This document shows, in pieces, positions 1-17,294 of a stretch of 64,000 bases of DNA. A model generated the notes under the pieces. It was given only the letters and a program-made list of their open reading frames with translations, was not told the origin of the DNA and ran no database searches. A program made the translations under genes and the position numbers. This stretch comes from Gemmatimonadota bacterium. Its GTDB lineage: Bacteria; Gemmatimonadota; Gemmatimonadetes; Gemmatimonadales; GWC2-71-9. The DNA lies in assembly GCA_036679645.1 (NCBI GenBank), contig JAZDCY010000016.1:37377-101376 (forward strand). The letters are read 5' to 3'. The stretch's first letter is position 1; every line of letters begins with the position of its first letter.

Positions 1-201
1 TCCGTCCTCACCCGTGTCCACGACGGCCACGCGGCGGGTCTCACCGATCTGATTGGCTGCCAACCCGACACCCTGTTCGTCGCGCATCGTATCGAACAGG
101 TCGGTGACCAGTTGCCGAACCGCGCCGTCCACCTCGGTGACCTCGGTCGCGCGCTGGCGCAGTACCGGCGAGCCGAGTAGGTGGAGGCTACGCAGGCTCA
201 C
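1..201 (-). CDS. def: Peptide deformylase, 5' part (runs off the window start)
   Basis: Manual translation from GTG at 201: MSLRSLHLLGSPVLRQRATEVTEVDGAVRQLVTDLFDTMRDEQGVGLAANQIG, containing deformylase motif 1 (GxGLAAxQ). GTGA overlap with the yajC stop. Not in the ORF track. Confidence 0.88.
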   Translation of the reverse strand, partial: MSLRSLHLLGSPVLRQRATEVTEVDGAVRQLVTDLFDTMRDEQGVGLAANQIGETRRVAVVDTGEDG

Positions 202-536
202 GACCGCTTCTTCTCGTCACCCGTTCCCGGTGTGAGCACCTCGGCGACGCGCCCGCGCTGAATCACGAGCCGCGATTCGCCGCTCTTTATCGTGAGCTCG
301 TCGTCTTTCACCTTGATGACCTCACCCACGATGCCCCCGTTCGTGACGACGCGGTCGCCCCGTGAGATCTCCGCAAGGCGGGCCCGGTGCCGTTTCTCCT
401 GCTGCGAACGGGGGCGGATCAGCAGGAAATAGATGATGCCGATGAAGGCCGCCATCTGAAACAGAAAGATGCCGAACCCAGGGCCGCCGGCCCCGCCGGA
501 CGGGGCGAACAGCAAAAACAGGGTGCTCAGGTTCAC
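198..536 (-). CDS. yajC: Preprotein translocase subunit YajC
   Basis: TM segment then IYFLLIRPRSQQEKRHR and GDRVVTNGGIVGEV. Start placed at GTG 536, which overlaps the tgt stop (GTGA). Confidence 0.92.
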   Translation of the reverse strand: MNLSTLFLLFAPSGGAGGPGFGIFLFQMAAFIGIIYFLLIRPRSQQEKRHRARLAEISRGDRVVTNGGIVGEVIKVKDDELTIKSGESRLVIQRGRVAEVLTPGTGDEKKRS

Positions 537-1666
537 GCGTCGCTCCGGGTGTTGTACCGGGCCAGCCAGTCGCGCCGCCACGTCTCGAACGTTCCGTCGA
601 GGACGCGGGCACGCGATGTCTCGCCCAGGCGAATCAAGAACCGCACGTTGTGCAGCGAAAGCAGTCGGAGTCCCAGCAACTCATCGGCGACGAACAGGTG
701 TCGCAGGTATCCGCGACTGTACGTGGTGCATGTTTCACAGTCGCAACCGGCATCGATTGGTGTCTCATCGCGCCGGAAAGCCGCGTTGCGCACGTTGAGA
801 CGGCCATCGGCCGTGAACGCCGAGCCGTTGCGCCCGTTCCTCGTGGGTGCAACGCTATCGAATAGATCTACGCCACGGGCCACCGCTTCGAGCAGGTCTT
901 CCGGAAAACCGACCCCCATAAGATAACGTGGGATGCCATGGGGCAATGCGGGGCACAATGTTTCGAGAATGGCGTACATCGCCGCACGCTCCTCTCCCAC
1001 CGCGAGCCCGCCGATCGCGAGGCCGGACCAGGCGCGCATGCCCGTGATCGCTTCGAGCGCCCGGTCACGGAGATCGGGGAAGATCGCCCCCTGAACGATG
1101 GGCCAGAGGGTCTGCCGCTCGGGCGTAGCATTGGCCAACTCGGCGTGCCGTGCCGCGCACCGTTTCAGCCATCGCGTTGTGCGCGTGAGTGCCTCCTCGG
1201 CCTCCGGCCGCGTGGCCGTTCCGGGGACGACGTGGTCGAGCGCCATGGCGACGTCGCTGCCCAGGGCCCACTGGATTTCGACAGCGCGCTCTGGCGTGAC
1301 CATGCGTCTGGCACCATCGACGTGTGACTGGAACTCGACGCCCTCGTCGGTCACGCGGCGCGAGCCGTCAAGTGAAAATACCTGAAACCCGCCCGAGTCG
1401 GTGAGGATGGGTCCGTCCCACGCCATGAACCGGTGTAGCCCGCCCAGCGCGGCGATGGTCTCTTCACCCGGACGGACGTGCAGGTGATACGTGTTCGCCA
1501 GCACCACCTGCGTTCCAACGGCCGTGAGATCGAAGGGCGAGAGCGTTCGTACGGTCGCCTGTGTCCCGACCGGCATGAACGCCGGTGTCAGTACTGATCC
1601 GTGCGGGAGCGAGAGCGTCCCGGCGCGGGCCGCGCCGCAGGTGGCGTCGATCTGGAACTCGAACAT
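533..1666 (-). CDS. tgt: tRNA-guanine(34) transglycosylase
   Basis: TPAFMPVGT, LTDSGGFQVFSL, YLMGVG, DLFDSVAPTRNGR and CDCETC/HN Zn motifs. True start MFEFQ at 1666; the upstream extension in the ORF track runs through the queA remnant and the CRISPR array. Confidence 0.97.
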   Translation of the reverse strand: MFEFQIDATCGAARAGTLSLPHGSVLTPAFMPVGTQATVRTLSPFDLTAVGTQVVLANTYHLHVRPGEETIAALGGLHRFMAWDGPILTDSGGFQVFSLDGSRRVTDEGVEFQSHVDGARRMVTPERAVEIQWALGSDVAMALDHVVPGTATRPEAEEALTRTTRWLKRCAARHAELANATPERQTLWPIVQGAIFPDLRDRALEAITGMRAWSGLAIGGLAVGEERAAMYAILETLCPALPHGIPRYLMGVGFPEDLLEAVARGVDLFDSVAPTRNGRNGSAFTADGRLNVRNAAFRRDETPIDAGCDCETCTTYSRGYLRHLFVADELLGLRLLSLHNVRFLIRLGETSRARVLDGTFETWRRDWLARYNTRSDA

Positions 1667-1667
1667 G

Positions 1668-1718
1668 TCACACGATAGCCATCGCGTCGCCGTAGTTGTA
1701 GAGGCGATATCGCTGAGC
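1668..1718. repeat. Left att-like direct repeat: displaced copy of the queA 3' end
   Basis: tcacacgatagccatcgcgtcgccgtagTtgtagaggcgatatcgctgagc matches 17466-17516 at 50/51 positions (1696 T vs 17494 C). Similarity continues to 1725 with third-position changes. Confidence 0.93.
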
Positions 1719-1727
1719 GACCGCCAT
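1668..1727 (-). CDS. Putative 19-aa mini-ORF (MAVAQRYRLYNYGDAMAIV) formed from the displaced queA tail, coupled to tgt
   Basis: ATG at 1727 is in frame with TGA at 1670-1668, one base before the tgt ATG. Weak SD-like AGGT 9 nt upstream. Translation is unproven. Confidence 0.45.
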   Translation of the reverse strand: MAVAQRYRLYNYGDAMAIV

Positions 1728-1743
1728 GACCGCCCAACCTGCG

Positions 1744-1966
1744 GTTTCAATCCACGCCCGCGCGCGAGCGGGCGACCTGGGTCTTCGCGTGTGTCTACAC
1801 GCTGATGTTTCAATCCACGCCCGCGCGCGAGCGGGCGACCTCGACATTCTGAGCAACGCACTAACGACGTTTCAATCCACGCCCGCGCGCGAGCGGGCGA
1901 CTCGGACATGGCGCGCGTCGTCGATGTCCTCGCGTTTCAATCCACGCCCGCGCGCGAGCGGGCGAC
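1744..1966 (-). CRISPR. CRISPR array with 4 identical 33-bp repeats (GTCGCCCGCTCGCGCGCGGGCGTGGATTGAAAC) and 3 spacers
   Basis: Repeats at 1744-1776, 1807-1839, 1869-1901 and 1934-1966; spacers of 30, 29 and 32 nt. 7-bp stem CGCCCGC/GCGGGCG and 11-nt 3' tag ending ATTGAAAC, typical of I-C repeats. Confidence 0.98.
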
Positions 1967-2148
1967 TGACTACTGCTAACTCTTTGTAGTTGAATGGCTT
2001 CAAAAGCCGGTCGCGCGAACCGGCTCCGGGTGAGCAAGGTTGGGCTACTATCGGCGCGAGTGCAAACGGTCAAGCAGTTGTCAAAGAGCGCGTTAGCCGT
2101 GGTCGCGAACCCCAGGCGAAAGATGCACCAGCTAGAGGTTCGCGGCTA
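1967..2148 (-). promoter_or_regulatory. CRISPR leader
   Basis: Lies between cas2 and the first repeat, relatively AT-rich next to the repeat, with several CGCGAACC/GGTTCGCG motifs like those of I-C leaders. Confidence 0.7.
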
Positions 2149-2439
2149 TCAAATAATCAGCGGTCCCTCCAGATCGACGCTCGGCTTCGCGCCGTGATGC
2201 TCCACCCGATGACGCCAATTCCTTCCCAGGAAGTAGAACCGCAGGCTGTCTTCCTCAGGTCGATAGAGATCGAGCAGACGCAGTTTGAACTGCGCCCACT
2301 GTGTCGGGTCGAGCTGGCACTCGAATACCGAGTTCTGCACCCGTTGGCCAAAGCCGACGCAGGTCTTCGCGACGTGCCTGAGGCGTTTGCGGCCCTCCCG
2401 GGTTGTCGTCGCTACGTCGTACGTCACCAAGACAAACAC
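2149..2439 (-). CDS. cas2: CRISPR-associated endoribonuclease Cas2
   Basis: [30 protein letters not shown]; I-C-like sequence. Confidence 0.97.
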
Positions 2440-2454
2440 AATGGCGTCCTCCGG

Positions 2455-3486
2455 TTACTTCCACACGAACGCCGGATAGGCATCGAGATCGCCGCGGAGT
2501 AGCCGCGCCAGGAGCCGCGCCTGCAGGTGGATCAACAACCCTACCGTGGTTTGCTCGCCCAGGAAGGGGTGTGTGATCTCATCCTGCTTGCGCTTCTGAT
2601 ACGCGATCAGAACCGTCTTTCGCGTGTCCTCGGACATCTCGACTCCACCGGATTCCGTCTTGCGGAAGCCCTTCGCGTGGACCTGCTGGCGGTTGATGAG
2701 CGTGAGGGCGAGCCGATCCGCCAGGAACGGTCGGAACTCCTCGATGAGATCGAGCGCGAGTCCGGGTCGGCCTGGACGGTCGCGGTGGAGGAAACCGACC
2801 TGGCTGTCCAGCCCGGCCGCCTCACAGGCGGCTCGCGCATCGTGCCCGAGCATGGCGTACAGGAACGAGAGCAGCGCGTTGACCGGATCCAGCGGCGGCC
2901 GGCGGTTGCGCCCGGTAAACGCAAAGCCGTCGGGCTGCCCAGTGATCAGGTGGCCGAACACGGCGAAATAGATGCTGGCGCTCTCCCCCTCGATCCCGCG
3001 AATCAGGTCGAGCCGGTCCGCCGCCTGGACCTGTTGGATGGTGTGGGCCAGACGCGCCGCCGCCGCCTGCACAGCCGCCCGACCTTGGCCCTCTGGATAG
3101 TCTCGAACGCTCCGGAGCAGCACGGTCCGTGCGTTCGCGACCTTCGCAGTAACGAGATTCCGCGCAATGACGGCGCTCCGAGACTCGTCGTCGGCGCGGC
3201 GGTACTGCTCGCGACGCAGCAGGACGTTGCCGGGTGTGAAACCGAGCACGCGGGCAAGGAACTTCCCCTGCTCGCTCAGGAACGAGATGGCGATACCCCG
3301 TTCGGCGCACGCGTGCATTAGCCACGGGCTGATGTTGACGAGACCGAAACACACGATCCCGCCGAGCGTGTGGAGCGGCAGCTGAAGGCGGGTCTCCTCC
3401 CCGAGTTTTACCTGGAGTGCCTCCCCGTACTTCGAGACGTACGCGCCTTGCGTCGTCACGAACAGGGTATTCAGGTGCTGCTTCAC
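2455..3486 (-). CDS. cas1: CRISPR-associated endonuclease Cas1 (I-C type)
   Basis: LNTLFVTTQGAY, IRGIEGESA, RNRRPPLDPVNALLSF, GFLHRDRPGRPGLALDLIEEFR. Confidence 0.98.
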   Translation of the reverse strand: MKQHLNTLFVTTQGAYVSKYGEALQVKLGEETRLQLPLHTLGGIVCFGLVNISPWLMHACAERGIAISFLSEQGKFLARVLGFTPGNVLLRREQYRRADDESRSAVIARNLVTAKVANARTVLLRSVRDYPEGQGRAAVQAAAARLAHTIQQVQAADRLDLIRGIEGESASIYFAVFGHLITGQPDGFAFTGRNRRPPLDPVNALLSFLYAMLGHDARAACEAAGLDSQVGFLHRDRPGRPGLALDLIEEFRPFLADRLALTLINRQQVHAKGFRKTESGGVEMSEDTRKTVLIAYQKRKQDEITHPFLGEQTTVGLLIHLQARLLARLLRGDLDAYPAFVWK

Positions 3487-4169
3487 GGTGTCGCGCCTTT
3501 TGCCTCATCGAGCGTGACGCCGACGGCGCGGGCGAGGTAACGGGCCGCCGAGCCGCGGGCGCGCCCCATAGCATCGGGGAGGCATATGTGGAGCAGGGAG
3601 CAGCGGTCGCATTTGGGCTCGCGTCGCGCCCGCGGCGTGCGGCGCGACGTGATGAGTTCGTGCAGGCGCGCGGCCGTTCCCTCGGTCAGGCGTCTGAGCG
3701 GAGCGTCAAAGGTCACGTCATGGCGCTTCCGCGTGCGGCCGTAGTACAGGGCCCCAGCCGGAACCTCGGTGTGCAGCATGTCTTCGAGGCACAGCGCTTG
3801 GGCACACAGTTGCACCTTGTCTGCCTCGTGGCGCTTGGGACGGCCGCGTTTGTACTCGACGGGGAACACAATCTGGCTGTCGCCAGCCGCGCGGAACTCG
3901 ACTATGTCTGCCTTGCCCACGAGGCCCAACCGGGTCGATCGAAGCGCCAGGCCCCGCGTGACGCGAACGCCCGACCGGGTCTCGGGCCGGCCGTCGTGCG
4001 CCTTGTCGTGCATATGACGCCCCTCGACGGTCAGGCGGTTCTCGGCCCAGAGGCCCTCGATGTGGATCAGGGCGCACTGCCGCTCGCAGAAGAGCAGGTG
4101 TTGGAGGGCGGAGATGGGGAGGAGGTCGTCCTCGGTGAAGCCTGCTTCCGCCCCACCCACAGGGGTCAC
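3483..4169 (-). CDS. cas4: CRISPR-associated protein Cas4
   Basis: ISALQHLLFCERQ, GKADIVEF, PVEYKRG, QLCAQALCLE, CDRCSLLHIC (Fe-S Cys cluster). Confidence 0.97.
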   Translation of the reverse strand: MTPVGGAEAGFTEDDLLPISALQHLLFCERQCALIHIEGLWAENRLTVEGRHMHDKAHDGRPETRSGVRVTRGLALRSTRLGLVGKADIVEFRAAGDSQIVFPVEYKRGRPKRHEADKVQLCAQALCLEDMLHTEVPAGALYYGRTRKRHDVTFDAPLRRLTEGTAARLHELITSRRTPRARREPKCDRCSLLHICLPDAMGRARGSAARYLARAVGVTLDEAKGATP

Positions 4170-4579
4170 GGACGGACTTCTCCAGGCAACTCCGCGAGAA
4201 TCGCGTCGTTGAGACGCCGTGCCAGTGCCAGCGCCGCGCGCGGCTCATCCGGAGCCGGCTCGGCGGGCTCTCCCGGGTAGCGGAACTTCCAGGCGTAGTC
4301 GGTAAGGCCTCCGCTCTCGCGGATCACCTGCTCGAGGTCCGGCGCGATCTCAAGCACCTGGCGCCCCAGATCGGCAATGTTGTGCGTCTTCCGAAAGATG
4401 CGTCCGTGCCACGTGAGGAAGCCTTTGAGCGCCTTCTCGGCAGCCTGCTGGCAATGGAACAGGGCGTCTCCCGCAAGTGGCGGTTCGACGTTGCTGATGA
4501 GCTCCGCGGCGCGCAGGTCGTTCGCCGCCTTGATCAGCCATGCGCGGGTCTCGGCAACGAACTCGGGATCAAGCGGCAT
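4166..4579 (-). CDS. HEPN domain protein (COG2250-like)
   Basis: AWLIKAANDL, FHCQQAAEKALKG, KTHNI, KFRYP. Start MPLDP at 4579 overlaps the MNT stop; its own stop overlaps the cas4 start (GTGA). Confidence 0.88.
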   Translation of the reverse strand: MPLDPEFVAETRAWLIKAANDLRAAELISNVEPPLAGDALFHCQQAAEKALKGFLTWHGRIFRKTHNIADLGRQVLEIAPDLEQVIRESGGLTDYAWKFRYPGEPAEPAPDEPRAALALARRLNDAILAELPGEVRP

Positions 4580-4925
4580 GGAGCAGCTTCCCTTCGCGCA
4601 AGACGGTCGCTGGGAGAGAGGCGGGTACGCGTGTGCGGCGATCGAACGCGGTGCTGGTCCACACGATGACATCCGCCGCTGTCCCGATCCCCCACAGCGC
4701 TTCGTGGGCCAGCCGGGTGCCCCGCCGGTCCGGTGTAGCGTCGTCGGGCACGATCACCATGAGATCGTAGTCGCTGTCCGCGTCGGCGTCGCCGCGGGCT
4801 TTGGAGCCGAATAGGTAGACGCGCTCCGGGTCGTATGCGTCCACGAGGCGGCGGACGATCTCGGCAAGCGCCGGATCGCGGTCTGGGAGCTGGCCCGTGG
4901 GCCTTCCCTGAGACTCAGGCATCAT
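4569..4925 (-). CDS. Minimal nucleotidyltransferase (MNT) domain protein
   Basis: VYLFGSKARGDADADSDYDL (GSx10DxD) motif; directly upstream of the HEPN gene. Confidence 0.9.
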   Translation of the reverse strand: MMPESQGRPTGQLPDRDPALAEIVRRLVDAYDPERVYLFGSKARGDADADSDYDLMVIVPDDATPDRRGTRLAHEALWGIGTAADVIVWTSTAFDRRTRVPASLPATVLREGKLLHAA

Positions 4926-4981: not shown

Positions 4982-7127
4982 TCACACTACCCATGCGCTC
5001 GTGTCCTTCTGGCTCAGCAAGTGTTCCTGCCGCAGGACGCCAGCCATGTAACCGAGAAAGTCGGCCTGGTACTCCAAATCGCCCAGGCCGTATAGCCCCA
5101 GGCCCCGATCGTAGCGGTCGGTGTGAAGCTTATCAAGCCCGAGGTCGATGATCCGCCCAGGCCACATCTGGACACTGTAGGTCAACAATTCCGTCGGTGA
5201 GATTTTCTTTCTGTTCCGCACTGCCTGTGCCAGGCCTGCATCTACAATGACTGTCGCCGTCTGCTGCGGGATAACGCGGCAGAGGTGCGCGACTCCCCGT
5301 CGGCAGTGGCCGTGGGCATATGGTCGGTACTCCATGCGGTTCTCATCCTCGATCAGTTTGCGCGCTTGGTCCTCAGCGCCAGCCGTCCATTCCTTCCGCA
5401 TGGCTTCCGTCGCGAGCCAGGTTGTTCCCAGCTCGGGATCGTTGAGTTGGCTCCTACTGATGCGGTGGAGTGCTCGCCGAGGCACCTCGAAGGCAGGATT
5501 TCGTCGGAAGCGGGCGTCGCGGAGTCGAAGGTCCCAGACCTCCACCTCCTCCGCGTACTCGCCACCCCGGTTGACTCGACCGCCGACCTGAATCAGGCTG
5601 GCGGTGGACGCCGATTCCCGGAAGCCGGTACGGAACGACAAGTCCATCCCGGCTTCTACACAACTGGTTGCCACAAGGACCCAGTCATCGATCTTCCCTT
5701 CCTGCAGGCGAAGCTTCATCCGCTTCACAACCAAGTCCCGATGAGCGGGCGCAAGAGCAGTCGAAAGATGTAGCACGTCGTGGCCGGCTAGGCGCATCGC
5801 TCGTGCAACTACCGCGGCCGTCTGCACGGTGTTGACGACGAGTAACCGCGGACCAGGCTTCTCCGACACGAACTTCAGAAGTCCGTCCAGGTCAAGAGCC
5901 GGCTCCAGTTCATCCTGATCGGCTTCATTCTGGCCCGCTTTGGTAATCCTGCGCTCCACGCGGACGCGCCGACCTTCCGCTCGTCGGAGCTCGTCCCTGA
6001 GCTGTCTGTTGCCTACGAGATCCGGCACGGGCGGCATTCGCTTCTCGGATCCCGTTCGGATCAGCTCCCGGTACTCGGGAAGCTCCCAAAACCGCGGCAG
6101 CGAGCCGCTAGCGAGTACAAGGTGCCCACCCCAGTCGTCTGTCCACGTCTCCAGCCATCGCCACACCTGTGGCCAGAGGTGCGAGGGCATAGCCGCGTGC
6201 ATCTCGTCCACGAAGACGGCCGATCCTGGCAACTCGTGCAGCTTTCGCAACCGGGCTGGATGATGGCTGCCCAGGGTTTCGAAGAATTGCACCGCAGTCG
6301 TGACAATGATTGGCGCCTTCCACAGCGTTGCGAGTTGTCGCAGCTCCAAGTCCTCGAAGTCGGCCCGGTGGTGATGCTCGGCGACCACGTCTTCCGGGCG
6401 CTCACCCTCCAGCACCAATGCCTTGCGGTACACGTCCACAGACTGTGTGATGATGTTCGTGTACGGCAGGACGACAACGATGTGGCGCAACTGAGGTTTT
6501 CCTTCGGTCGCCACGCGCAGGAGGTGGGCCATTACTGCCGTCGTCTTGCCGCTCCCCACCGGAGCATCGCAGGCACGGATCGCTGGCTCAATCGCGGCAT
6601 CCCGGCAGGCTTCAAACACCCGTCGGCGCGCTTCATTCCGCTGCTGTTCTCGTGGTTTCTTTCCCTTCGGTAACCCGTCGACGTACCGCTGCAGTGCCGC
6701 CGCGCGCTCATCCCATCGGGTCTCGATGCCCGGCGTCTCGACCTCACCGCCATAGTGCCGTGCCGTGTCACCATGGTCAGCGTCTACGAGGCACGATAGG
6801 GCCAATCGACGGGTAAAGCCGCACGGCTGCAATGCCTTCGGTTTAGCCTTCGGTAACTCCGGACAGCCAGCCGAACGGTGGAGATTCCGATACCCGTCGA
6901 GTCGGCCTTTCGCATCGACGTGGTCCGCTACAACAAGACCACCTGGGGTCTCGCGCCTTAACTGGCGGAACGGTCGCCCCTGTGGTTCAAGGAAATCCTC
7001 CTTCAGACTGAACAGCCCGGCATGATGAGCGGCGACTAACGCTACCGATTCCTGCCAGTTAAGGCGATCCAGTTCGGCCACGCCTGCGTCCTCATGCGCA
7101 ATCACTAACCGTTTGCGTGAACTCTGC
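4982..7127 (-). pseudogene. cas3: cas3, 3' part (distal HD motifs plus SF2 helicase), IS-interrupted
   Basis: IAHED, AAHHAG, LVDADH, APVGSGKT (Walker A), FVDEMH (DExH), LSTAL, QVGGRVNR. Joins the 5' part in frame once the IS is removed. Confidence 0.93.
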
Positions 7128-7266
7128 TGCGGATTTCGGACCCATTCGGACACCTGTTTCGGAATCATCCGGACACCCATTTCGGTTTTATCCGGACACC
7201 TGTTTCGGAGCCATCCGGACACCCATTTCGGACATTCGGACACCTGTTTCGGAGATGTCGGACACC
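7128..7266 (+). repeat. IS21 left-end subterminal repeats
   Basis: CGGACACC core at 7147, 7170, 7193, 7216, 7237 and 7259 (21-23 bp spacing), mostly followed by (TG/CA)TTTCGG. Confidence 0.9.
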
Positions 7267-7334
7267 TTCGCTGAGGGAGTGGGCGCTGGATAACTGAGGC
7301 GGATTCGGTCTCACTTCAGGGACTTTTCCCCGGA

Positions 7335-8990
7335 GTGATGCTGATGCCCGCTCGGAGGTTGTCCATGCGCAAGATCGTAGACCTGCTGCGGTTGCAGGCG
7401 GAGGGGCTGAGTGTGCGGCAGGTGGCCGACAGCTTGGGCCTGCCGCGCAGCACCGTGGCCGACTACATGGGCCGGCTGAAGCGGGCCGGGCTGACGTGGC
7501 CGCTGCCGGATGAGGCGGACGAAGCGGAGCTTCTCGAGCGGCTGTTCGGCGCCGAGCGCTCTCGGGCTGGTGAGCGGCCGATGCCGGACTGGGCGACGGT
7601 GCATGCCGAGCGCAAGCGACCGGGTGTGACCCTGCACCTGCTGTGGCTGGAGTACAAGCAGGTCCATCCCGAGGGGTATCAGTACACTCAGTTTTGTGAG
7701 TACTACAAGCGCTGGCGTGCGCGGCTCGATCCCGTTTTACGGCAGGCCTACAAGGCGGGAGAGAAGGTGTTTGTCGACTACGCCGGTCAGACCATGCCCG
7801 TCGTCGACGGCGAGACCGGCGAGGTGCGGCAGGCGCAGATCTTCGTCGGGACCCTAGGAGCGAGCAACTACATCTATGCCGAGGCCACGTGGACGCAGCG
7901 CCTGCCCGATTGGACGGCCGCGCACGTGCGGATGTACGAGGCATTCGGAGGTGTCCCGGCCCTGACGGTGCCCGACAATCTGAAAACAGGCGTACGGCAC
8001 GCCTGCTACTACGAGCCGGATCTCAATCCCACATATCAGGACCTGGCCACGCACTACGGGACGGCGGTGCTGCCGACGCGGGCGGCCAAGCCCCGGGATA
8101 AGGCCAAAGTGGAGACCGGCGTGCAACTGGTGGAGCGCTGGTGCCTGGCCCCACTCAGGAACCACACCTTCTTCAGCCTCGCCGAGTTGAATTGCGAGCT
8201 GCGGACGCATCTCGACACCCTCAACGAGCGACCGTTTCAAAAACTGCCCGGTACCAGACGGCAGCTCCTCGAGACGCTGGAGCGGCCGGCCTTGAAACCC
8301 TTGCCGCCGACGCCCTTCGAATACGCCGAGTGGAAGAAGGCCCGCGTCAACATCGACTACCACGTCCAGGTCGATAGCCATCTCTACAGCGTCCCCTACA
8401 TGCTCGTGCGTCAGGAAGTGGACGTGCGCCTCACGGCGAAGACGGTAGAGGTGTTGCACCGCGGCAAACGCGTCGCGGCCCACCGGCGTAGTCATCGTCC
8501 GGGCCGCTTCACTACCGAGCCGGGCCACCGTCCCAAATCCCACCAGCGGCATCTCGAGTGGACGCCATCGCGGCTGATACGCTGGGGAGCCACGCTGGGG
8601 CAGCACACCGGCGAACTCGTTGCACACATCCTCGAGAGCAGACCCCATCCCGAGCAGGGATACCGCGCCTGCCTCGGCCTCCTCAGTCTCGCGCGCAAGT
8701 ACGGCCCGGAGCGAGTCGAAGCCGCGTGCACGCGCGCCCTGCGCACTCGGGCAACGACCTATCGATCCGTGAAATCGATCCTCGAACATGCACTCGATCG
8801 TCTGCCGTCCGAGGAGGAGCAGATCACCCTGTCGCTTCCCGCCGACCACGCCCATGTGCGCGGGTCGACCTATTACGCCACGCTCACTACAGCAAACCAT
8901 CGACCGCATGCACGAACTGCGATTGACGGGCATGGCCCAAGCCCTCGACGAACAACGGGGCCAACCCGATCTGCACGACCTCGCCTTTGA
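7335..8990 (+). CDS. istA: IS21 transposase IstA
   Basis: HTH start, GEKVFVDYAG, VPDNLKTGV, PRDKAKVETGV (DDE). Start may be 7338 or 7365; the C-terminus reads past the usual stop position. Confidence 0.93.
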   Translation: MMLMPARRLSMRKIVDLLRLQAEGLSVRQVADSLGLPRSTVADYMGRLKRAGLTWPLPDEADEAELLERLFGAERSRAGERPMPDWATVHAERKRPGVTLHLLWLEYKQVHPEGYQYTQFCEYYKRWRARLDPVLRQAYKAGEKVFVDYAGQTMPVVDGETGEVRQAQIFVGTLGASNYIYAEATWTQRLPDWTAAHVRMYEAFGGVPALTVPDNLKTGVRHACYYEPDLNPTYQDLATHYGTAVLPTRAAKPRDKAKVETGVQLVERWCLAPLRNHTFFSLAELNCELRTHLDTLNERPFQKLPGTRRQLLETLERPALKPLPPTPFEYAEWKKARVNIDYHVQVDSHLYSVPYMLVRQEVDVRLTAKTVEVLHRGKRVAAHRRSHRPGRFTTEPGHRPKSHQRHLEWTPSRLIRWGATLGQHTGELVAHILESRPHPEQGYRACLGLLSLARKYGPERVEAACTRALRTRATTYRSVKSILEHALDRLPSEEEQITLSLPADHAHVRGSTYYATLTTANHRPHARTAIDGHGPSPRRTTGPTRSARPRL

Positions 8991-9654
8991 GGACCGGCTC
9001 GCCCTGCTCGTGGAACGCGAAGCCACCGCCCGGGCCGATCGCAGATTGACCCGGCTGCTGCAGCTCGCAAAGCTGCGTCTCCAGGCGAGCGTCGAAGAAC
9101 TCGACTTCAAGACCCCTCGTGGACTCGATCGCTCGGTCATGTTACGGCTCGCTGGCTGCGACTGGATCCGCCAGCATCAGGTCGCCCTGCTCATCGGAGC
9201 CACGGGCACGGGCAAGACCTTCATCTCCTGTGCCCTCGGCCACAGTGCCTGTCGACAGGGACTGCGGGTGCGCTACGTCCGGCTGCCTCGTCTCTTGCAC
9301 GACCTGGCGCTCGCCCAGGCCGACGGCTCCTACGGCAAACTCTTGACCGCCTTAGCGAAGACAGAACTCTTAATAATCGACGACTGGGGCCTGGCACCGC
9401 TCGGTGATCGCGAACGCCGTGACGTGCTCGAAGTCATCGAAGATCGCTACGGCCGCCGGGCCACGATCGTGACCAGCCAGCTCCCCGTCGAGCACTGGCA
9501 CGAACTCATAGGGGACCCCACCTTTGGGGACGCGATCCTCGACCGCCTCGTGCACGGTGCACATCGGATCACGCTGAAAGGCCGGTCGATGCGCCGCAAG
9601 GAAACGACCAAGAAGGAAACGAAGAAGAAACCGACAACGAAAGAAGGAAACTAG
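8908..9654 (+). CDS. istB: IS21 AAA+ helper ATPase IstB
   Basis: GATGTGKT (Walker A), LLIIDDWG (Walker B), TSQLP, AILDRLVH. The first in-frame ATG after the istA overlap is 8908. Confidence 0.93.
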   Translation: MHELRLTGMAQALDEQRGQPDLHDLAFEDRLALLVEREATARADRRLTRLLQLAKLRLQASVEELDFKTPRGLDRSVMLRLAGCDWIRQHQVALLIGATGTGKTFISCALGHSACRQGLRVRYVRLPRLLHDLALAQADGSYGKLLTALAKTELLIIDDWGLAPLGDRERRDVLEVIEDRYGRRATIVTSQLPVEHWHELIGDPTFGDAILDRLVHGAHRITLKGRSMRRKETTKKETKKKPTTKEGN

Positions 9655-9677
9655 GCCAGCACCCACACCTCGGTGTC

Positions 9678-9772
9678 GGTGTCCGACATCAGCCGAACGG
9701 ACTGTCCGACTTCAACCGAACCAGGTGTCCGACATCAACCGAACTGGGTGTCCGGATGCACCGAAATCCGCA
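9678..9772 (-). repeat. IS21 right-end subterminal repeats
   Basis: GGTGTCCG at 9678, 9724 and 9747, plus a degenerate copy near 9701 (23-bp spacing), inverted relative to the left-end units. Confidence 0.85.
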
Positions 9773-9999
9773 CTCTGCCGAAGTACCGCCTGATTAGCCT
9801 CGTCCAGTTTGCCGAGGTCGTGGTACAGCGCCGCCGCATCGACCCAGCCAATGAAGGCTTCCTGGTCACCGGCGTAAAACGCGACGGCGCGCTGAGCATT
9901 ACCCACCGTATCGCGACGGACATTGGTGACGTGCGCGACGTACGTCTGTGCCGACACGCCATCCCGCCGGCTATGTGCTAGAGGCGGATCGCTCGACAT
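9773..9999 (-). pseudogene. cas3: cas3, 5' part (proximal HD nuclease motifs)
   Basis: MSSDPPLAHS...YVAHV...AALYHDLGKLDEANQAVLRQS, then the IS right end. Confidence 0.92.
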
Positions 10000-10009
10000 C
10001 GCCGCTGCC

Positions 10010-11017
10010 TTACAGGAGCTGGCTGCACCACTCCGGCAGTTCGACACACAGGTCATACAGCTTGGCGTTCCTCAGGACGCCGTGGAAGTCATTCGGCAGC
10101 GCCCTGGGCACATCGTACTGATCGGTGAGTGGAACTTGGTCCGTTGACGGCGGCATTCTCTCGTCGTCCCTGGGTTCCCACTTCCGTTTCGGGGTGAGCT
10201 TCTCGATGAATTCGAATTCCGAGAATGAGCCGAGGCTGTATTCGCTGCCTGGCTCGTTCTCGTGCTCGGCGTACCAAGCATGGCGAACGTCAACCATGCC
10301 ACGTGGCGCGGACCGAGTATGCGGGTACGCGTAGCGGATCAGGCCCAACATGAGCGCGATGTCTTTCGCAGTACAGCCACTGTTCCTGGCGGCCGTCGGG
10401 TTGACAAAGAAGGGCATGCAGTAGACACCGTGCTCGACGATTCGACTTGCCAGCGGCGCCATGCCGCGATCCTTCGACTCCTGAGCGCTAGCCTTCTTTG
10501 TGAGGGTGTCCCGAAGCACTCGCACCGGAGCGGCCGATACGCCGATCGGAAAATGCGCGACGCCAGTGCGGATGTACTTGCGGTCACCAGCGGTGCTGCG
10601 CCTCCCGCCCTCAGGTGCGTCCTCGCCCTTCTCAAGAAAGGTGGCTCCGAAGGTGCGAGCGTCCCAGTACTTGTTCGCCACCTTGTTGGGGTCCTCATCG
10701 ATGAGTTCAACGACTCTCTTCCAGGCTTCGGCGGCTTCCTTGACGTCAGCGAAGCCGCGCTCACGGGATTCGAGAATGGAGAACTCATCGTCATTCAACC
10801 GAAACTGACTCTTCAAGTGCTGCCAGACGTCGCCATCCTTCTGCTCTACCAGATCCCGCATCTTGCGCTTGAAAGACACCCCCGTGATGTATCCACGTCC
10901 GTCGTGATTTCGCTGGCGCGGGTCGCTCTCGCGATCCGGGTCGCCGTTGGGGTTCGAATTCCGCACCTCGATAACCAGCAGGCCGGTGGCTCGGGCAATA
11001 CCGTGCTTCGCGTTCAT
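10010..11017 (-). CDS. cas7: Cas7 (Csd2/I-C family, divergent)
   Basis: EVRNSNPNGDPD, ITGVSFKRKMRD, YWDARTFG. Confidence 0.93.
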   Translation of the reverse strand: MNAKHGIARATGLLVIEVRNSNPNGDPDRESDPRQRNHDGRGYITGVSFKRKMRDLVEQKDGDVWQHLKSQFRLNDDEFSILESRERGFADVKEAAEAWKRVVELIDEDPNKVANKYWDARTFGATFLEKGEDAPEGGRRSTAGDRKYIRTGVAHFPIGVSAAPVRVLRDTLTKKASAQESKDRGMAPLASRIVEHGVYCMPFFVNPTAARNSGCTAKDIALMLGLIRYAYPHTRSAPRGMVDVRHAWYAEHENEPGSEYSLGSFSEFEFIEKLTPKRKWEPRDDERMPPSTDQVPLTDQYDVPRALPNDFHGVLRNAKLYDLCVELPEWCSQLL

Positions 11018-11436
11018 TGCGTACTGTCCTTCCCGTTTTGGCCATGTTTCTCATCCGGCGGTGAGGCGAGGAACCCGAGAAGGAGCTGGGCCTTCGCTAC
11101 GTCGTCTACCTCGATCGGCAGGTCGGCGGCGCCGAGTGTGGCCGCGAGCGGCTGGTACTGCCGCAGCTTCTTCCTAGCCTCATTGACGGCGATCCGTTGC
11201 TGCTCCCTTTCCTCGCCCTGTGGCGTCTGGGCCGTCTTCGCCCACCGCACGTACTCCATCATTCGTTCGCCGAGGTCGGCAACCGCGGCCGCGGGGTTGT
11301 CCAGGGCTCGGCGCATCAGGGACGTGCCGATCAGGGAATTGGGCAACTGGCCCTTGCGAACAACGGTGCAGTAGTCCTTGTGCAGTGTGTCGGCCAGCGC
11401 CAGGACCTGGCCAACCTGGTACGGCGCATTCTTCAT
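11014..11436 (-). CDS. cas11: Internally translated small subunit Cas11c (140 aa)
   Basis: AAAGGAG SD 6 nt before an in-frame ATG (MKNAPYQVGQ) in the cas8c 3' part. Internal Cas11 translation is established for I-C systems. Confidence 0.75.
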   Translation of the reverse strand: MKNAPYQVGQVLALADTLHKDYCTVVRKGQLPNSLIGTSLMRRALDNPAAAVADLGERMMEYVRWAKTAQTPQGEEREQQRIAVNEARKKLRQYQPLAATLGAADLPIEVDDVAKAQLLLGFLASPPDEKHGQNGKDSTQ

Positions 11437-13227
11437 GTACTGCTCCTTTCGATGGCCGAGGGCGTCGAGCAGGATCGCGGAAACGGCTACCGCCCGCAGT
11501 GCTACCTCGTCTGAGAACCGTGCGTAGTCAGGTCGTGCTCTGTGCTTCTTCTGAGCCCTCAGGGGTCCGTAGGCGTGCTGGGCGCCGAAGACGCCGATCA
11601 ACAGCGGCGTGAGACGCCGGACAAGCATCCTCAGCATCGACCGCGCTGCTGGCTCCCCCTTGCCCTCTGTTCCAAGCATCACGTCGAGCACCTCGCCGAG
11701 CCCCGGCCCGACGACCGCCGCCGACTCGCTGCCACCACGCGCCCACTGATGCGACAGCAGCCGCACCACTTGGTCCGGATACGGTGGGAACGGCTGACCC
11801 TCGCCTGCCTCCAGTTTCTTCCCGTTTCGCGTCTCTTCAGGCAACCACAGCCGCACCTGCGGGGCATTTCGCTTCACCGCCTCAACCCACTTCTGAGCCG
11901 CGTCCAGCACTTGCTGAACGGTTGGTGATTCGGCTAAGACGACCTGAGCTTGTCCCTTTGACATCTCCCTGATCACGAATAGCTGAAGGCGTGACTTCGG
12001 GTGTTGCCTCGCAACCCCCTTCAACGCTCGGACCAGAGCGGCGGCATCGACTTCGAATCGTTGTTCGTCCACACCCATTCCGCCACCGATGTATCGTGCG
12101 GTGTTGGCGTCAAGAGCAGGAGAGTCTTCGACGTAGGCGATAAGTACGTCCGGCTTCTCGACCTGCTGGCCCCCTGCCGATTCGAACCGGCTGCTCCCGA
12201 CGAACTCCCAGGTCTGGCCTTGGCGAGAATCAGCGGTGATGAACTCGAGTGCTTCCTTCAAACAGTCAGCGCGGGCCTTGGCAATGGTGCAGCGAGCTGC
12301 GCTGAACATCGAGGAAAGCGGAAAGCGCTTTCGTCCGATCTTTTGCTTCCTCATGGAATAGACAGGAAGGTCGATCTTTGGAAGCGTTTCCCGCTCGAGG
12401 GCGGCCGCTTCACCAGTGAGCGCATCGATACCAACCGTCGCGCTGTCCTTCTGGGTGTGCGAGTGCTTCCACGTTGGCTCGCGTGGCAGATGCTCCCTCA
12501 GCAAGTTGCCAATCCTCTCGCTGTAGAGAGGATGACTGAACAGATTGGGGTCGCTCACGTCAAATGCCAGTTGGACGGTCATCGTTGGGCGGCGGCCGTT
12601 TTCATCGGGCGGGCCTTTTCCTACGAGCAGCTGTTCGACCTGGTCGATGGCGGAGAGCGTTCCTTGCTTGAGCCCTGCAAGGGCGACCTCGCCGATGCTG
12701 GAAAGTAGCGTGTCGGGTTGCTGCGCCGCGATCACAAAGCGTTTGCCAAGTGCTGCAACGACCTGGCCCTGGTCGTTCATCTGTTGAGCGCACTTCACCA
12801 GTTCGTTGGCCTTGCGGTCTCGGAGTCGGACCCACAGGTCCTGCGTCCTTTTGGACCAGAGACACACGGATCCCTTCTGTGACGCTTCCTCCAGAGTCGT
12901 GACACGCCGAGCATCATCCAGAGTTCTACGCCGTCTCTGATGCTTGTCGAAGCCAAGCTCTTGCCAGACATCGGCAGAGACCTCCGAGAGTGGCTGCTGC
13001 ACGCGAACGACGGGAAAGCTGTTCTGGTTACCTTCCATCACAGTCCACGACGGCCAGTCCTCGTGCGTTACTTCTTCAATCGCCACTACTTTGCCTTGAC
13101 TGTTCAGCCTGACGCGCAGGCATGGCGCTGAGCGACCGGGTTCTGGAACGCGCCTATGCTTCCGTTCTAGCCGAAGCGAGGGTGTTCTTTCCAGCGCCTG
13201 CCAGAGCCGCCATGTCTCATTGAGCAC
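11014..13227 (-). CDS. cas8c: Cas8c-like large subunit (divergent)
   Basis: 737 aa between cas5 and cas7, MLNE start, C-terminal NAPYQVGQVLALADTLHKDYC helical region. Call rests partly on position. Confidence 0.8.
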   Translation of the reverse strand: MLNETWRLWQALERTPSLRLERKHRRVPEPGRSAPCLRVRLNSQGKVVAIEEVTHEDWPSWTVMEGNQNSFPVVRVQQPLSEVSADVWQELGFDKHQRRRRTLDDARRVTTLEEASQKGSVCLWSKRTQDLWVRLRDRKANELVKCAQQMNDQGQVVAALGKRFVIAAQQPDTLLSSIGEVALAGLKQGTLSAIDQVEQLLVGKGPPDENGRRPTMTVQLAFDVSDPNLFSHPLYSERIGNLLREHLPREPTWKHSHTQKDSATVGIDALTGEAAALERETLPKIDLPVYSMRKQKIGRKRFPLSSMFSAARCTIAKARADCLKEALEFITADSRQGQTWEFVGSSRFESAGGQQVEKPDVLIAYVEDSPALDANTARYIGGGMGVDEQRFEVDAAALVRALKGVARQHPKSRLQLFVIREMSKGQAQVVLAESPTVQQVLDAAQKWVEAVKRNAPQVRLWLPEETRNGKKLEAGEGQPFPPYPDQVVRLLSHQWARGGSESAAVVGPGLGEVLDVMLGTEGKGEPAARSMLRMLVRRLTPLLIGVFGAQHAYGPLRAQKKHRARPDYARFSDEVALRAVAVSAILLDALGHRKEQYMKNAPYQVGQVLALADTLHKDYCTVVRKGQLPNSLIGTSLMRRALDNPAAAVADLGERMMEYVRWAKTAQTPQGEEREQQRIAVNEARKKLRQYQPLAATLGAADLPIEVDDVAKAQLLLGFLASPPDEKHGQNGKDSTQ

Positions 13228-13900
13228 GGTGTACCTCCGGCGGCGTCGGGTGCTCGTAGGACATCACCCCGTTGACGATGCTCCAGTTCTGCTTAAAGGC
13301 GGGGTTCAGTTGACGGCGCTCCCACATCGAATGCAACAGAGATGGTATGATGTCGTTGATGCTCGCCTCCGGTGCGGTGCCTTCGCGGAACGTGCCGAAG
13401 TAAGTGGGGACGAACTCCTTCCATCCCAGACAAGGCGTGTAGAACGTCTGTCCGTGTGTCAAACGCTTCTCAAAAAGTCGCTTCAGCTCTGGTGCCCAGT
13501 CCTTTCCACGGCGGCGCCTCAACTGGGGACGGTCCTTTCCAACGGTGCTGCGCTTGACGCGCATCACACCATAGATGCGGTAGCAGACGTCCACGAGAAT
13601 AGTCGCGTTGAGCTGGTAATTGTTGTTCCTCCTGATTTGGTCCTGCTTACGAAGGGGGCCACCGTAGTTGGTCACGTAGCGCTCGTATCTGATCGGGCAG
13701 CAGATTTCTACACGGGTCGGGTGGATGTACGCGTGGGGCCGCCAAACCACTGCGTCAAACATTCCCCTGGCCGCCGAATACGTGGGCACTGGATACGAAA
13801 TCGGCGTTGCCCCGGTATCGGGCCGCGTGAACATTGCCGCCGGGCCAGCGACCTCAAGTTGGACTACGTATTGAGTGTCGCTCCGGGACGGGTTCGGCAC
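13217..13900 (-). CDS. cas5: Cas5 (I-C-like, divergent)
   Basis: LEVAGPAAMFTRPD, SYPVPTYSAARGMF, ILVDVCYRI, PCLGWKEF; AGGAG SD before GTG 13900. Confidence 0.92.
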   Translation of the reverse strand: MPNPSRSDTQYVVQLEVAGPAAMFTRPDTGATPISYPVPTYSAARGMFDAVVWRPHAYIHPTRVEICCPIRYERYVTNYGGPLRKQDQIRRNNNYQLNATILVDVCYRIYGVMRVKRSTVGKDRPQLRRRRGKDWAPELKRLFEKRLTHGQTFYTPCLGWKEFVPTYFGTFREGTAPEASINDIIPSLLHSMWERRQLNPAFKQNWSIVNGVMSYEHPTPPEVHRAQ

Positions 13901-14143: not shown

Positions 14144-14497
14144 TCAGGTCTCTTCAGTGGGCTCCGACAACAGCGCGCCCGTCCGCTCGACCAGGCCGGG
14201 GAGTTCATCGCTGATGACCTGCCAGACAATCTCGTGGTCCAGCATGTCGTATCCGTGAACCAGGATGTTACGAAAGGCCACGATGCGGTCTACCTCACCG
14301 GCCCGCGCTGCGATCTCGGGAGTCATTCGATGTAGCCGGTTCATCGCTTCGCCGATGATCTGGAGGTTGCGCTCCACCGCCTGACGCACCAGCCGGTTCT
14401 CCAGATACTCGGCCAGCGACGACTGCGCCGTGGCCTCGAGGACAAACGAGCCGGCGTCGCGGACGTCTTCCAAGAGCTTCAGCGCCTCAGGCTGCAT
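14144..14497 (-). CDS. HepT-like RNase toxin (DUF86/HEPN)
   Basis: AVERNLQIIGEA and the Rx4H motif FRNILVHGY; start MQPE overlaps the MNT stop by 11 nt. Confidence 0.9.
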   Translation of the reverse strand: MQPEALKLLEDVRDAGSFVLEATAQSSLAEYLENRLVRQAVERNLQIIGEAMNRLHRMTPEIAARAGEVDRIVAFRNILVHGYDMLDHEIVWQVISDELPGLVERTGALLSEPTEET

Positions 14498-14795
14498 ACA
14501 ACTCCTGGCGGCTCCGCTCGACTGCCGCAATGAAGTACGGGTTTCTCAACGACCGGCGCGTGAGGAGATCGACGTCCCGGGCAAGAAGTTCCCGGAGCCC
14601 GTCCCAGAGACCGAAGTATTGATCCGCCAGCGTCATCTCCCCGGTATGCTGGAACTCCACCAGGAGATCCAGATCACTGTGGTCGGGGTCGAACGCGCCA
14701 GTGGTCGCCGAGCCGAATACGTCGAGCCGAGAAACGTGGTAGCTGCGGCAGAGCTGCTGGATGGCCGCCTGGTTCTGCTCAAGCAATGATATCAT
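14487..14795 (-). CDS. MNT antitoxin (MntA-like)
   Basis: LDVFGSATTGAFDPDHSDLDLLVEF, DVDLLT, LRNPYF. Confidence 0.9.
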   Translation of the reverse strand: MISLLEQNQAAIQQLCRSYHVSRLDVFGSATTGAFDPDHSDLDLLVEFQHTGEMTLADQYFGLWDGLRELLARDVDLLTRRSLRNPYFIAAVERSRQELYAA

Positions 14796-15494: not shown

Positions 15495-16262
15495 TCAAGC
15501 CACCCCGAGCGGATCCACAGGCACAACCTGCCCCACGCTATCCAGATGCCACCGGCCCCCCTCCGCCAGTAACGTGCACCAGAGGTCCCAGCCCCTCTCC
15601 AGCAGCGCGCCGGCCCGCACCGGCACCTTGATCGGGCCGTAAAGAGCCGGCTCCTGATACCGCGGCCGCAGCCACAGCAGCCCGGGCTCGATCCGTGTTA
15701 CCTCAAAACAGGTATGCTCCGCGTCGGCGTCGAGGTCCCACACCGGAGCGCGCCCGCGGCACGCGCGAGCCAGTCGTTTCTTAGCCCGCTCGGCCCGGAG
15801 CAGTTTGCCCTGAAGACGGCGGGCCAGCCGCGCTATGTCGGCCGCCACTGTTGCATCCACGTACCCCTCGTCCGCTAACCACAGCGCAAACTGCTCCAGC
15901 TCCGGTAGCAGCTCGGGCGTCTGCCTCAAGTGAAGCAGCATGGTGTCGCCCAGCCATGAGATCACAAACTCCCGCAGCACCGTCGGCAGGTGTTCGCGGC
16001 CGACGCTCTCGCCGCGCGACGCCCGTGCATCCCCTGGTTGCCTCGTGGGGTGCCGCGCGTGTATCTGATGCTCGCCGCAACTCGGCTGCTCCAGTCCGGG
16101 ATCGGCGTCGTGCAGATAGATAGAGAGCGCAGCACAGAGCTGGGTCGCATCGCGGCCCTGTCCAGAGGCCGCCAGCTCATACGCGGCGCCGATTTCGTCG
16201 ATCGTGGGCGATGCCCCCTCCGGGACCGGAGGCTGAGCGACGCCGCGATTCCAATACATCAC
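15495..16262 (-). CDS. Hypothetical protein
   Basis: 255-aa ORF with a protein-like C-terminal beta region (FEVTRIEPGLLWL...GPIKVP...GRWHLDSVGQVVP); family not recognised. Confidence 0.65.
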   Translation of the reverse strand: MMYWNRGVAQPPVPEGASPTIDEIGAAYELAASGQGRDATQLCAALSIYLHDADPGLEQPSCGEHQIHARHPTRQPGDARASRGESVGREHLPTVLREFVISWLGDTMLLHLRQTPELLPELEQFALWLADEGYVDATVAADIARLARRLQGKLLRAERAKKRLARACRGRAPVWDLDADAEHTCFEVTRIEPGLLWLRPRYQEPALYGPIKVPVRAGALLERGWDLWCTLLAEGGRWHLDSVGQVVPVDPLGVA

Positions 16263-16292
16263 GATTCCCTGTCTTGCTCCTGCACGAGGGCC

Positions 16293-17294
16293 CTAATGGT
16301 CCGCCCGGCCTCCGCTCGCACGCCCCTCCTCAACCAGCTTGATCCGCCGTTCCCGAGGCCCGAACGCCGCCGGGAACCGCACCACCCGATCGTACAGCGG
16401 CGCCCGCCGCATCATGTGCTCGTCGTCCGCCGGCGCGTCTGGCCCCCAGCTCTCGGCTTCCGATGGCCATTCCTCGATGAGCCCCATCGAGGCGAGCGGG
16501 ATCAGGAAGCCGAGTTCCACCGTGGTGCCAACCAACCAGGGTGGGACGTCCTGCACGTCCCTCGTCCACGGAGGCGAGAGCATGAGGCCCAGCTCGGCGG
16601 GAATCCACCAGTTCCCGTCCACCTGTCCGAGACCCCACATCTCGTAGGCCTCGCCGCCCTGGTGCATCACTGGCCCTTCAGGGAGCGGAAGCAGCAGCGT
16701 GTCCCGCACGTTTGCGTTGCGGAACAGCGCGCGGAGCAGCCGCGTGTAGAGGGATCCTGCGCCTTCGGGCGTGGCCAACCGCCGGCCCAGTGGGGTCAGC
16801 TCGTAGCTCCCAGTGCGCACCCGCAGACAGCCGAGATAGCGGGCCGTCTCCCGCATCTGCGTAACCGGCAACCACTCCTCGCCGCGCATCCAGGGGGGCT
16901 CCTCGTCGTCCTCCAGCAAGTCGGCATCCTCCGGTCCTGGCGGCGGGGCGCTGCGCGACCAGAGGCGCTCGCCGAGGGTGGAGGCGAAGTGGCCCTCGAA
17001 CGTCCCATCGCGCCGCGCCGGTACGCGGCCCGCGTCGGCCAGGGCCAGGAGCAGCTCGCGCAAGTCGGCGAAGTAGCTCGCATCCCCCAGCTCGTCCAAC
17101 CGCACGTTGCGGTTCAGCCGCAGCGGTCCCCGCGTGTACCAGTCGCCGGCCAGCAACTTGCGGACCTCGGACGGCGACAGGCCGAACAGATCGGGACGCC
17201 GCGCGTAATCCTCGGCGTCCACCGCGGGATGGGAGCCGAGCTGCTCGAGTAACAGGCGGCTGTCGCGCGCTTGGGACGGGAAGGCGTGGCGCAT
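16293..17294 (-). CDS. Hypothetical protein
   Basis: ~333-aa ORF (start MRHAF assumed) with a wHTH-like YELTPLGRRL segment; family not recognised. Confidence 0.65.
   Translation of the reverse strand: MRHAFPSQARDSRLLLEQLGSHPAVDAEDYARRPDLFGLSPSEVRKLLAGDWYTRGPLRLNRNVRLDELGDASYFADLRELLLALADAGRVPARRDGTFEGHFASTLGERLWSRSAPPPGPEDADLLEDDEEPPWMRGEEWLPVTQMRETARYLGCLRVRTGSYELTPLGRRLATPEGAGSLYTRLLRALFRNANVRDTLLLPLPEGPVMHQGGEAYEMWGLGQVDGNWWIPAELGLMLSPPWTRDVQDVPPWLVGTTVELGFLIPLASMGLIEEWPSEAESWGPDAPADDEHMMRRAPLYDRVVRFPAAFGPRERRIKLVEEGRASGGRADH

Follow-up and report, generated by a model that had tools for sequence, protein, structure and literature searches.

Upstream of tgt, the gene for queuine tRNA-ribosyltransferase, a Gemmatimonadota genome carries a short CRISPR array that ends 16 nt before a 19-codon open reading frame (ORF), which itself ends one nucleotide before the tgt start. 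Does this geometry make the host genes depend on the CRISPR locus, or is it what an insertion left behind? The DNA analysed, referred to throughout as the window, is the whole 64,000-nt stretch of contig JAZDCY010000016.1 (positions 37,377 to 101,376, assembly GCA_036679645.1). A preliminary description of it had proposed that the array feeds directly into a rebuilt mini-ORF that re-couples tgt, yajC and def, so that the host genes would depend on the CRISPR locus. The account that we favour, and hold to be quite probable, is that of a defence-island scar between queA and tgt, with probable read-through into tgt and initiation there that is independent of a Shine-Dalgarno (SD) sequence. The minus strand carries, in this order, four repeats, the 16-nt linker, ATG 1727, the 19-codon ORF, TGA-C-ATG, and then tgt, yajC and def. 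The features at the two boundaries are as follows.

1..201 (minus strand): 5′ part of def (peptide deformylase); start overlaps the yajC stop (GTGA); Pfam Pep_deformylase, 2e-15
198..536 (minus strand): yajC; start overlaps the tgt stop; Pfam YajC, 7e-21; a 112-aa gene in L104
533..1666 (minus strand): tgt; ATG start; Pfam TGT, 1.3e-144
1664..1670 (minus strand): queA-stop/tgt-start junction TGA-C-ATG; C at 1667, tgt ATG at 1666-1664
1668..1725 (minus strand): right copy of the direct repeat, the displaced queA 3′ end, resembling a right attachment site (attR-like); found by repeat search and alignment
1668..1727 (minus strand): mini-ORF MAVAQRYRLYNYGDAMAIV and its stop; 19 codons; ATG at 1727-1725, TGA at 1670-1668
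1728..1743 (minus strand): linker CGCAGGTTGGGCGGTC, the 16 nt between the last repeat and the ATG
1744..1966 (minus strand): CRISPR array, transcribed towards tgt; 33-nt repeats of I-C type in four identical copies, with three spacers of 32, 29 and 30 nt
1967..2148 (minus strand): CRISPR leader; a TTGACA box and GGTTCGCG motifs common to the leaders of related systems (L013, L014, L015)
17466..17523 (minus strand): left copy of the direct repeat, the functional queA 3′ end, attL-like; ends exactly at the TGA stop
17466..18521 (minus strand): intact queA; Pfam Queuosine_synth, 1e-129, full length

On inspection of the minus strand, the sequence details of the preliminary description all hold: the 16-nt linker with its AGGT, ATG 1727, the 19-aa ORF and TGA-C-ATG. 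Alignment likewise places a GAG of intact queA at the position of the mini-ORF ATG, and tgt does lack a GGAG-type SD, there being no GGAG or GAGG in the 25 bases upstream of it.

The two boundaries share a direct repeat. Its 58-nt copies are identical at 55/58 positions, and at 50/51 in the core formed by the last 51 nt (1668-1718). Homology between them stops at the queA stop codon on one side and at the G of the ATG on the other (GAG in the attL-like copy); the A and T of the mini-ORF start codon are island bases outside the duplicated segment, and its G is the first base of the duplicate. As judged from the sequence, the mini-ORF is a displaced duplicate of the queA end and TGA-C-ATG is the retained native queA-tgt junction. 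All three mismatches lie within the 5′ 31 nt of the repeat, so a crossover in the last 27 nt would fit. Between the copies lies an island of 15.7 kb (1726-17465), separating queA from tgt. The site is empty, queA leading directly into tgt, in both congeneric species (G001 and G002) and in most of the family members examined. Moreover, an independent Logan assembly, made from run SRR32233994, shows both junctions too, which indicates that the structure is real and a chimeric contig unlikely. An exact-protein search with Tgt and QueA returned only one other assembly, with the same junctions, and the same search with Cas2 returned no record.

The two congeners have a queA-tgt spacer of 15-17 nt containing CTAGATTCC and a GTG start for tgt (L002 for G001, L103 for G002), whereas the species of the window has TGA-C-ATG; the junction thus differs within the genus.

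These data are consistent with the following history. A 15.7-kb defence island would have entered between queA and tgt, which are adjacent genes in relatives. The copy now joined to the body of queA would keep that gene intact, and the other, still carrying TGA-C-ATG, would have ended up at the opposite end of the island, 16 nt beyond the final repeat. The cargo would have comprised two unknown genes, two MNT/HEPN pairs and a divergent I-C-like CRISPR-Cas locus, with an IS21-family insertion sequence (IS) arriving later. In the process tgt-yajC-def-fmt would have lost its promoter on the queA side, and it would now probably be transcribed by read-through from the CRISPR leader or from the cas4-cas1-cas2 transcript, or alternatively from a promoter, not recognised here, in the 200 nt that precede tgt. 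Translation of tgt would probably proceed without an SD and without obligatory coupling, as for most genes of the genome.

How, then, might tgt be transcribed? Apart from the IS21 element and a MazF-like remnant, everything in the island, array, leader and cas genes included, is co-oriented with tgt. Downstream, tgt/yajC and yajC/def overlap by 4 nt each, and in the independent assembly (L104) a full def is followed by fmt-thiE-thiS-thiG. Upstream of tgt no more than 58 nt of queA are left, and any promoter that lay within that gene or ahead of it is therefore now 15.7 kb distant. A consensus scan of the minus strand gave no terminator-like site between the leader and tgt, as the preliminary description had also reported. 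Co-orientation, the lack of a visible terminator and the displacement of a queA promoter together make read-through from the island into tgt a sensible inference, which we regard as moderately probable. The proposal that the island drives tgt transcription is a reasonable one to this extent: the orientation and the lack of a recognisable terminator favour it. Nothing follows from the further remark that no convincing promoter was seen. Over 18.6 kb, consensus scans for promoters and terminators gave the same counts as shuffled sequence, and since real promoters are certain to occur over that distance, such scans support neither the presence nor the absence of a promoter. The IS21 element, which lies antisense between cas5-cas8-cas7 and the genes downstream, makes one long cas transcript reaching tgt less likely than a start nearer the array.

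With regard to translation, GGAG or GAGG at -4 to -12 precedes 20% of 503 unambiguous starts, taken from ORFs rather than from curated genes, as compared with 9% of internal control codons. Starting without an SD is thus normal for this genome; of six cas genes checked, four carry the motif. Twelve queA-tgt junctions, that of the window and 11 from relatives, were read individually. Spacing ranged from -1 (a 1-nt overlap) to ~90 nt; 4/12 were tight, the window's included, and some family members have the tight forms TGATG, TAGTG and TAAcgGTG. In one relative a further gene stands between the two, and in several tgt is parted from queA by hairpin-rich spacers or another gene. Where tgt lies 12-25 nt from queA it has no clear SD, and the relatives' tgt is SD-less whether coupled or not, at distances of 12-90 nt too; its N-terminus, MFEF, is kept. 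Since SD-less starts are common and spaced tgt genes of relatives are also SD-less, tgt probably needs no coupling. From these comparisons, coupling appears neither conserved nor evidently required. Moreover, folding the RNA from 1754 to 1620 revealed no significant structure sequestering the tgt start (z = -0.5 against shuffled sequence). The idea that the mini-ORF was rebuilt to re-couple tgt is therefore weakened: SD-less starts are the rule, coupling varies among relatives, an ATG in the gap could be due to chance, and the collections searched gave no sister island.

How often chance alone would supply such a codon was estimated by sampling the genome at random positions. Somewhere within the 18 nt between repeat and duplicate (six codons), an ATG is expected in 6.5% of cases and any of ATG, GTG or TTG in 21%. 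For an ATG exactly at the junction codon the chance is 1.2%, a suggestive figure, yet one that is post-hoc on a single case. This last figure is one of several observations that weigh against the account given above. The linker places AGGT 9 nt upstream of ATG 1727, and the 1-nt spacing between stop and start at tgt is ideal for reinitiation. The estimate of SD usage comes from ORF-derived starts, the promoter actually driving tgt was not recognised, and the inserted island has no integrase. As regards the AGGT, it is a 4-nt match at long spacing (-13..-10 of the ATG), and it is paired in the minimum-energy fold. We consider ATG 1727 most likely to be fortuitous.

Some further features of this short region were noted. 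The heptamer GGCGGTC occurs twice, on either side of the AT of the mini-ORF (GGCGGTC-AT-GGCGGTC, window 1728-1719). This heptamer, together with a weak upstream similarity to queA, was considered as a trace of the insertion mechanism and set aside, being too short to interpret; it may be chance or a trace of joining. Upstream, the tgt frame stays open across the tail, the linker and three of the repeats, as far as an ATG in spacer 1 at 1909 (533-1909, minus strand), and the frame of the mini-ORF is open to a TTG at 1856. Both open frames are probably effects of high GC content. The linker CGCAGGTTGGGCGGTC has no second copy better than chance within the window.

Three other explanations have to be weighed. 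The model of the preliminary description makes tgt-yajC-def the 3′ trailer of a pre-CRISPR RNA (pre-crRNA) or cas transcript that is cut by Cas5, with ATG 1727 selected for reinitiation and the host operon dependent on CRISPR. The geometry is exactly as described and the junction ATG has the low chance rate given above, yet this is one instance for which no sister island was found. The lack of an SD at tgt, which the model takes up, is normal in this genome and is seen in most relatives, where tgt is uncoupled as well. The genes are co-oriented with no terminator seen, but IS21 splits cas3 and lies antisense between cas5-cas8-cas7 and the array. Cas5 is intact and akin to solved I-C pre-crRNA endonucleases, although the effector to which it belongs is divergent, and by our own inference Cas5/Cas7 loading on a trailer that bears the handle could occlude an ATG 16 nt past that handle. 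Finally, the overlapping downstream genes include def and fmt, but a second def paralog exists and the native operon would return if the repeats recombined. We therefore judge it improbable that tgt-yajC-def-fmt is a CRISPR 3′ trailer in which Cas5 makes the mRNA 5′ end and the junction ATG enables reinitiation at tgt; for the full chain, leader-driven, Cas5-processed, coupled through the mini-ORF and acting in retention, positive support ends with the geometry, and its probability is about as low.

A little less improbable, but still unlikely, is a promoter close to tgt, within the last 200 nt, that would make tgt expression independent of the leader and the cas genes and the position of the array incidental. 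It could be TTGAAA-18-CAGAAT at 1875-1846, which uses the TTGAAA of the repeat as its -35 and is the sole sigma-70-like match in 1400-2600, on the correct strand, or it could lie within the 58-nt queA tail. The hairpin-rich spacers or intervening gene of relatives imply that such a promoter is possible in the family. However, the match is 9/12 in a phylum whose promoter consensus is not established, and matches over 18.6 kb are as numerous as in the shuffle. That the contig is instead chimeric at the CRISPR repeats is very improbable: this is a metagenome-assembled genome of 100 contigs and repeats can mis-join, but in the independent Logan contig a complete repeat is connected with the tail and tgt through the unique 16-nt linker, the queA-island junction is reproduced as well, and the 58-nt repeat matches at both ends of the island. 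Taken together, the insertion scar with read-through and SD-independent initiation remains the reading to which we give most weight.

Two parts of the trailer model deserve separate comment. In type I-C systems the crRNA processed by Cas5c carries an 11-nt 5′ handle. The proposed cut that would leave an mRNA with a 27-nt untranslated region is correct in its arithmetic (11 + 16) for a canonical I-C system, and is here an extrapolation to a divergent effector. Given read-through and an active Cas5, a cut in the last repeat would be an almost automatic consequence. As for retention of the CRISPR locus without a toxin, recombination between the 58-nt repeats, the likeliest route of whole-island loss, would restore queA-TGA-C-ATG-tgt, so that loss of the island would not be penalised. 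In addition, there is a def paralog outside the operon (contig C86:43342-43776, Pfam 122.7 bits), and cas3 is already split by IS21. The retention argument is consequently weak.

The remaining features of the island were identified with family libraries, except where stated, and are listed below.

2149..4169 (minus strand): adaptation module, cas2 (2149-2439), cas1 (2455-3486) and cas4 (3483-4169); Pfam
4166..4925 (minus strand): MNT (4569-4925) and HEPN (4166-4672) pair within the cas string; Pfam HEPN 1.3e-16, NTP_transf_2 1.1e-9
4982..7127 (minus strand): helicase part of cas3, downstream of the IS; Pfam Cas3-like_C_2, DEAD
7128..9772 (plus strand): IS21-family element, istA and istB; 2645 bp; Pfam Mu-transpos_C_2/rve, IstB_IS21 8e-76
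9773..10056 (minus strand): N-terminal (HD) fragment of cas3, upstream of the IS; weak NCBIfam cas3_HD match, E 4.6e-4
10010..13900 (minus strand): effector genes cas5 (13217-13900), large subunit (11014-13227) and cas7 (10010-11017)
14145..14795 (minus strand): second MNT (14510-14795)/HepT (14145-14497) toxin-antitoxin pair; Pfam NTP_transf_2 1.4e-9, HepT-like 8e-20
15495..17294 (minus strand): two unknown genes in the part of the island nearest queA, of 333 aa (16293-17294) and 255 aa (15495-16262)
opposite strand: MazF-like remnant, read by eye from the letters without a family search

From queA, the order is thus two unknown genes, the MazF-like remnant, MNT/HepT, cas5-large subunit-cas7, the split cas3, MNT/HEPN, cas4-cas1-cas2, the leader and the array. 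Neither the 333-aa nor the 255-aa protein has a match in Pfam or NCBIfam. A six-frame search of the contig for Phage_integrase and Resolvase found no tyrosine or serine recombinase; the only DDE enzyme is IstA of the IS21 element, which belongs to an IS with its own 6-bp duplication. That element has perfect 23-nt terminal inverted repeats (TGCGGATTTCGG / CCGAAATCCGCA) and a perfect target duplication, CTCTGC (7122-7127, 9773-9778). It runs opposite to the cas genes and splits cas3 in the HD region, dividing an HD fragment from the helicase part. From this arrangement the insertion looks like a recent knock-out of interference that left cas5-8-7 and cas4-1-2 intact.

The CRISPR-Cas locus itself looks, from its family matches, like a chimera of modules, a divergent effector with a canonical I-C adaptation module. 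Cas1 scores 499 bits against the 385-bit cut-off of the I-C model (NCBIfam TIGR03640, cas1_DVULG). For the effector, Pfam recognises Cas_Cas5d (2e-9) and Cas_Cas7 (2e-44). The best NCBIfam match of Cas5 is the I-C model TIGR01876, at 50 bits against a cut-off of 85 bits, and that of Cas7/Csd2 is likewise the I-C model, at 102 bits against 182 bits. Cas5 matches solved structures of I-C Cas5, which are pre-crRNA endonucleases (E ~1e-13), and is itself a putative endonuclease. The large subunit (737 aa) has no match in Pfam or NCBIfam and cannot be assigned to Cas8c, and no ORF was recognised as Cas6 in family scans of the window. Cas3 is nearest to I-G models and is placed after cas7; its helicase part scores 71 bits with cas3_core and 76 bits with Cas3g of NCBIfam, both below cut-off.

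The repeat, GTCGCCCGCTCGCGCGCGGGCGTGGATTGAAAC, occurs in four copies with zero differences (1966-1934, 1901-1869, 1839-1807 and 1776-1744), and this array is the sole one with that repeat in the genome. All four copies match the Rfam family CRISPR-DR9 on the minus strand, with scores under its cut-off. In the leader, at 2024-2002, a GCCGGT-7nt-ACCGGC hairpin precedes TTTT, a point of caution for read-through into tgt, and the TTGACA box is common to the leaders of L013 and L014. Comparison of Gemmatimonadales I-C leaders (1967-2148 here, 2640-2826 in L013 and ~10830-11020 in L014) showed an inverted pair, CGCGAACC...GGTTCGCG, right after cas2, and a third motif, GTTCGCGC, ~50 nt before the first repeat, as well as a TTGACA-like box. 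These shared motifs may be regulatory or integration-host signals.

The collections that we searched for sister islands at queA contained none. The 27-nt core of the repeat had 0 exact matches in metagenome contigs, and no queA tail lay within 10 kb among the 80 closest Cas1 loci in genome contigs. A scan for an I-C repeat end followed within 35-65 nt by the codons for YGDAM gave 9 matches, all of which were ordinary queA genes and were rejected. In the queA of another soil lineage (L093-L101), the codons for G-I-E-T spell GGATTGAAAC 52 nt before YGDAM, a coincidental false positive. The closest Cas1 locus, L013 (82% identity), has an array of 44 repeats with a degenerate last repeat, followed by a vapBC-like pair, the latter recognised by reading the sequence without a check against a family library. 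For the 333-aa protein of the island a single distant homolog was found (35% identity), in a toxin-antitoxin neighbourhood and not beside queA.

Were the trailer model true, a natural CRISPR leader and a crRNA endonuclease would serve host gene expression, and CRISPR-Cas would be anchored in the genome without a toxin. As we read it, the locus is a case of an island that lacks an integrase and has a CRISPR array at its boundary, and of an operon that must tolerate a co-oriented insertion of 15.7 kb.

Lastly, we compared the locus with known systems. Canonical type I-C loci have the gene order cas3-cas5-cas8c-cas7-cas4-cas1-cas2. The order here, cas5-cas8-cas7-cas3(IS21-split)-MNT-HEPN-cas4-cas1-cas2, departs from it in having cas3, I-G-nearest and interrupted by IS21, after cas7, and an MNT/HEPN pair inside the operon. 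Other departures are the Cas5 and Cas7 scores below cut-off, the unrecognisable large subunit and the short spacers (29-32 nt). The locus shares with type I-C a Cas1 above cut-off, a repeat of ~32-33 nt with a GC-rich hairpin and the end GTGGATTGAAAC (3′ ...GGATTGAAAC), a leader adjoining cas2, the lack of a recognised cas6 and the kinship of Cas5 to solved I-C endonucleases.

CRISPR-regulated toxin-antitoxin modules (CreTA) addict cells to Cascade, their ectopic degenerate repeats yielding an RNA that guides Cascade to repress the toxin promoter (PMC9458426). The outcome proposed for the present locus was likewise a host penalty for losing CRISPR-Cas. However, there is no toxin RNA here, and the proposed dependence would be one of transcriptional polarity, relieved by precise excision; the 16 nt after the last repeat, searched as a CreTA-like pseudo-spacer, had no target match better than chance within the window. 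With termination-reinitiation pairs the locus shares a stop and start 1 nt apart and the 4-nt overlaps of tgt/yajC and yajC/def, but the upstream frame is a 19-codon remnant with a putative start and coupling is not conserved in the family. The lack of an SD at tgt would fit dependence on upstream translation, but ~80% of starts in the genome and the uncoupled tgt of relatives lack one too.

Read-through from mobile elements into host genes is similar in that a co-oriented insertion in an operon puts downstream genes on transcripts of the element. It differs in that a CRISPR array would be the last transcribed feature here, which would make the junction RNA a substrate for the crRNA-processing nuclease too. 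Our literature search found no account of read-through from a CRISPR array driving host operons. It also found no islands inserted in queA; the sole match was that of Pseudomonas islands at a tRNA-Leu gene downstream of tgt and queA, not in queA (PMC2647930).

The locus also resembles islands flanked by attachment sites, which likewise have a direct repeat derived from the target gene and ending at its stop, an intact target gene, an empty site in relatives and a cargo of defence genes; here the copies match at 55/58 and queA and tgt are contiguous in G001, G002 and others. Unlike those islands, this one has no cognate integrase at either end, the end-proximal ORFs being without family match, and its target, queA, lies inside an operon and is not a tRNA gene. 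It is thus another defence island with a duplicated gene end on its flanks, a kind already known, and is unusual in having no integrase and a far boundary 16 nt past a perfect CRISPR repeat.

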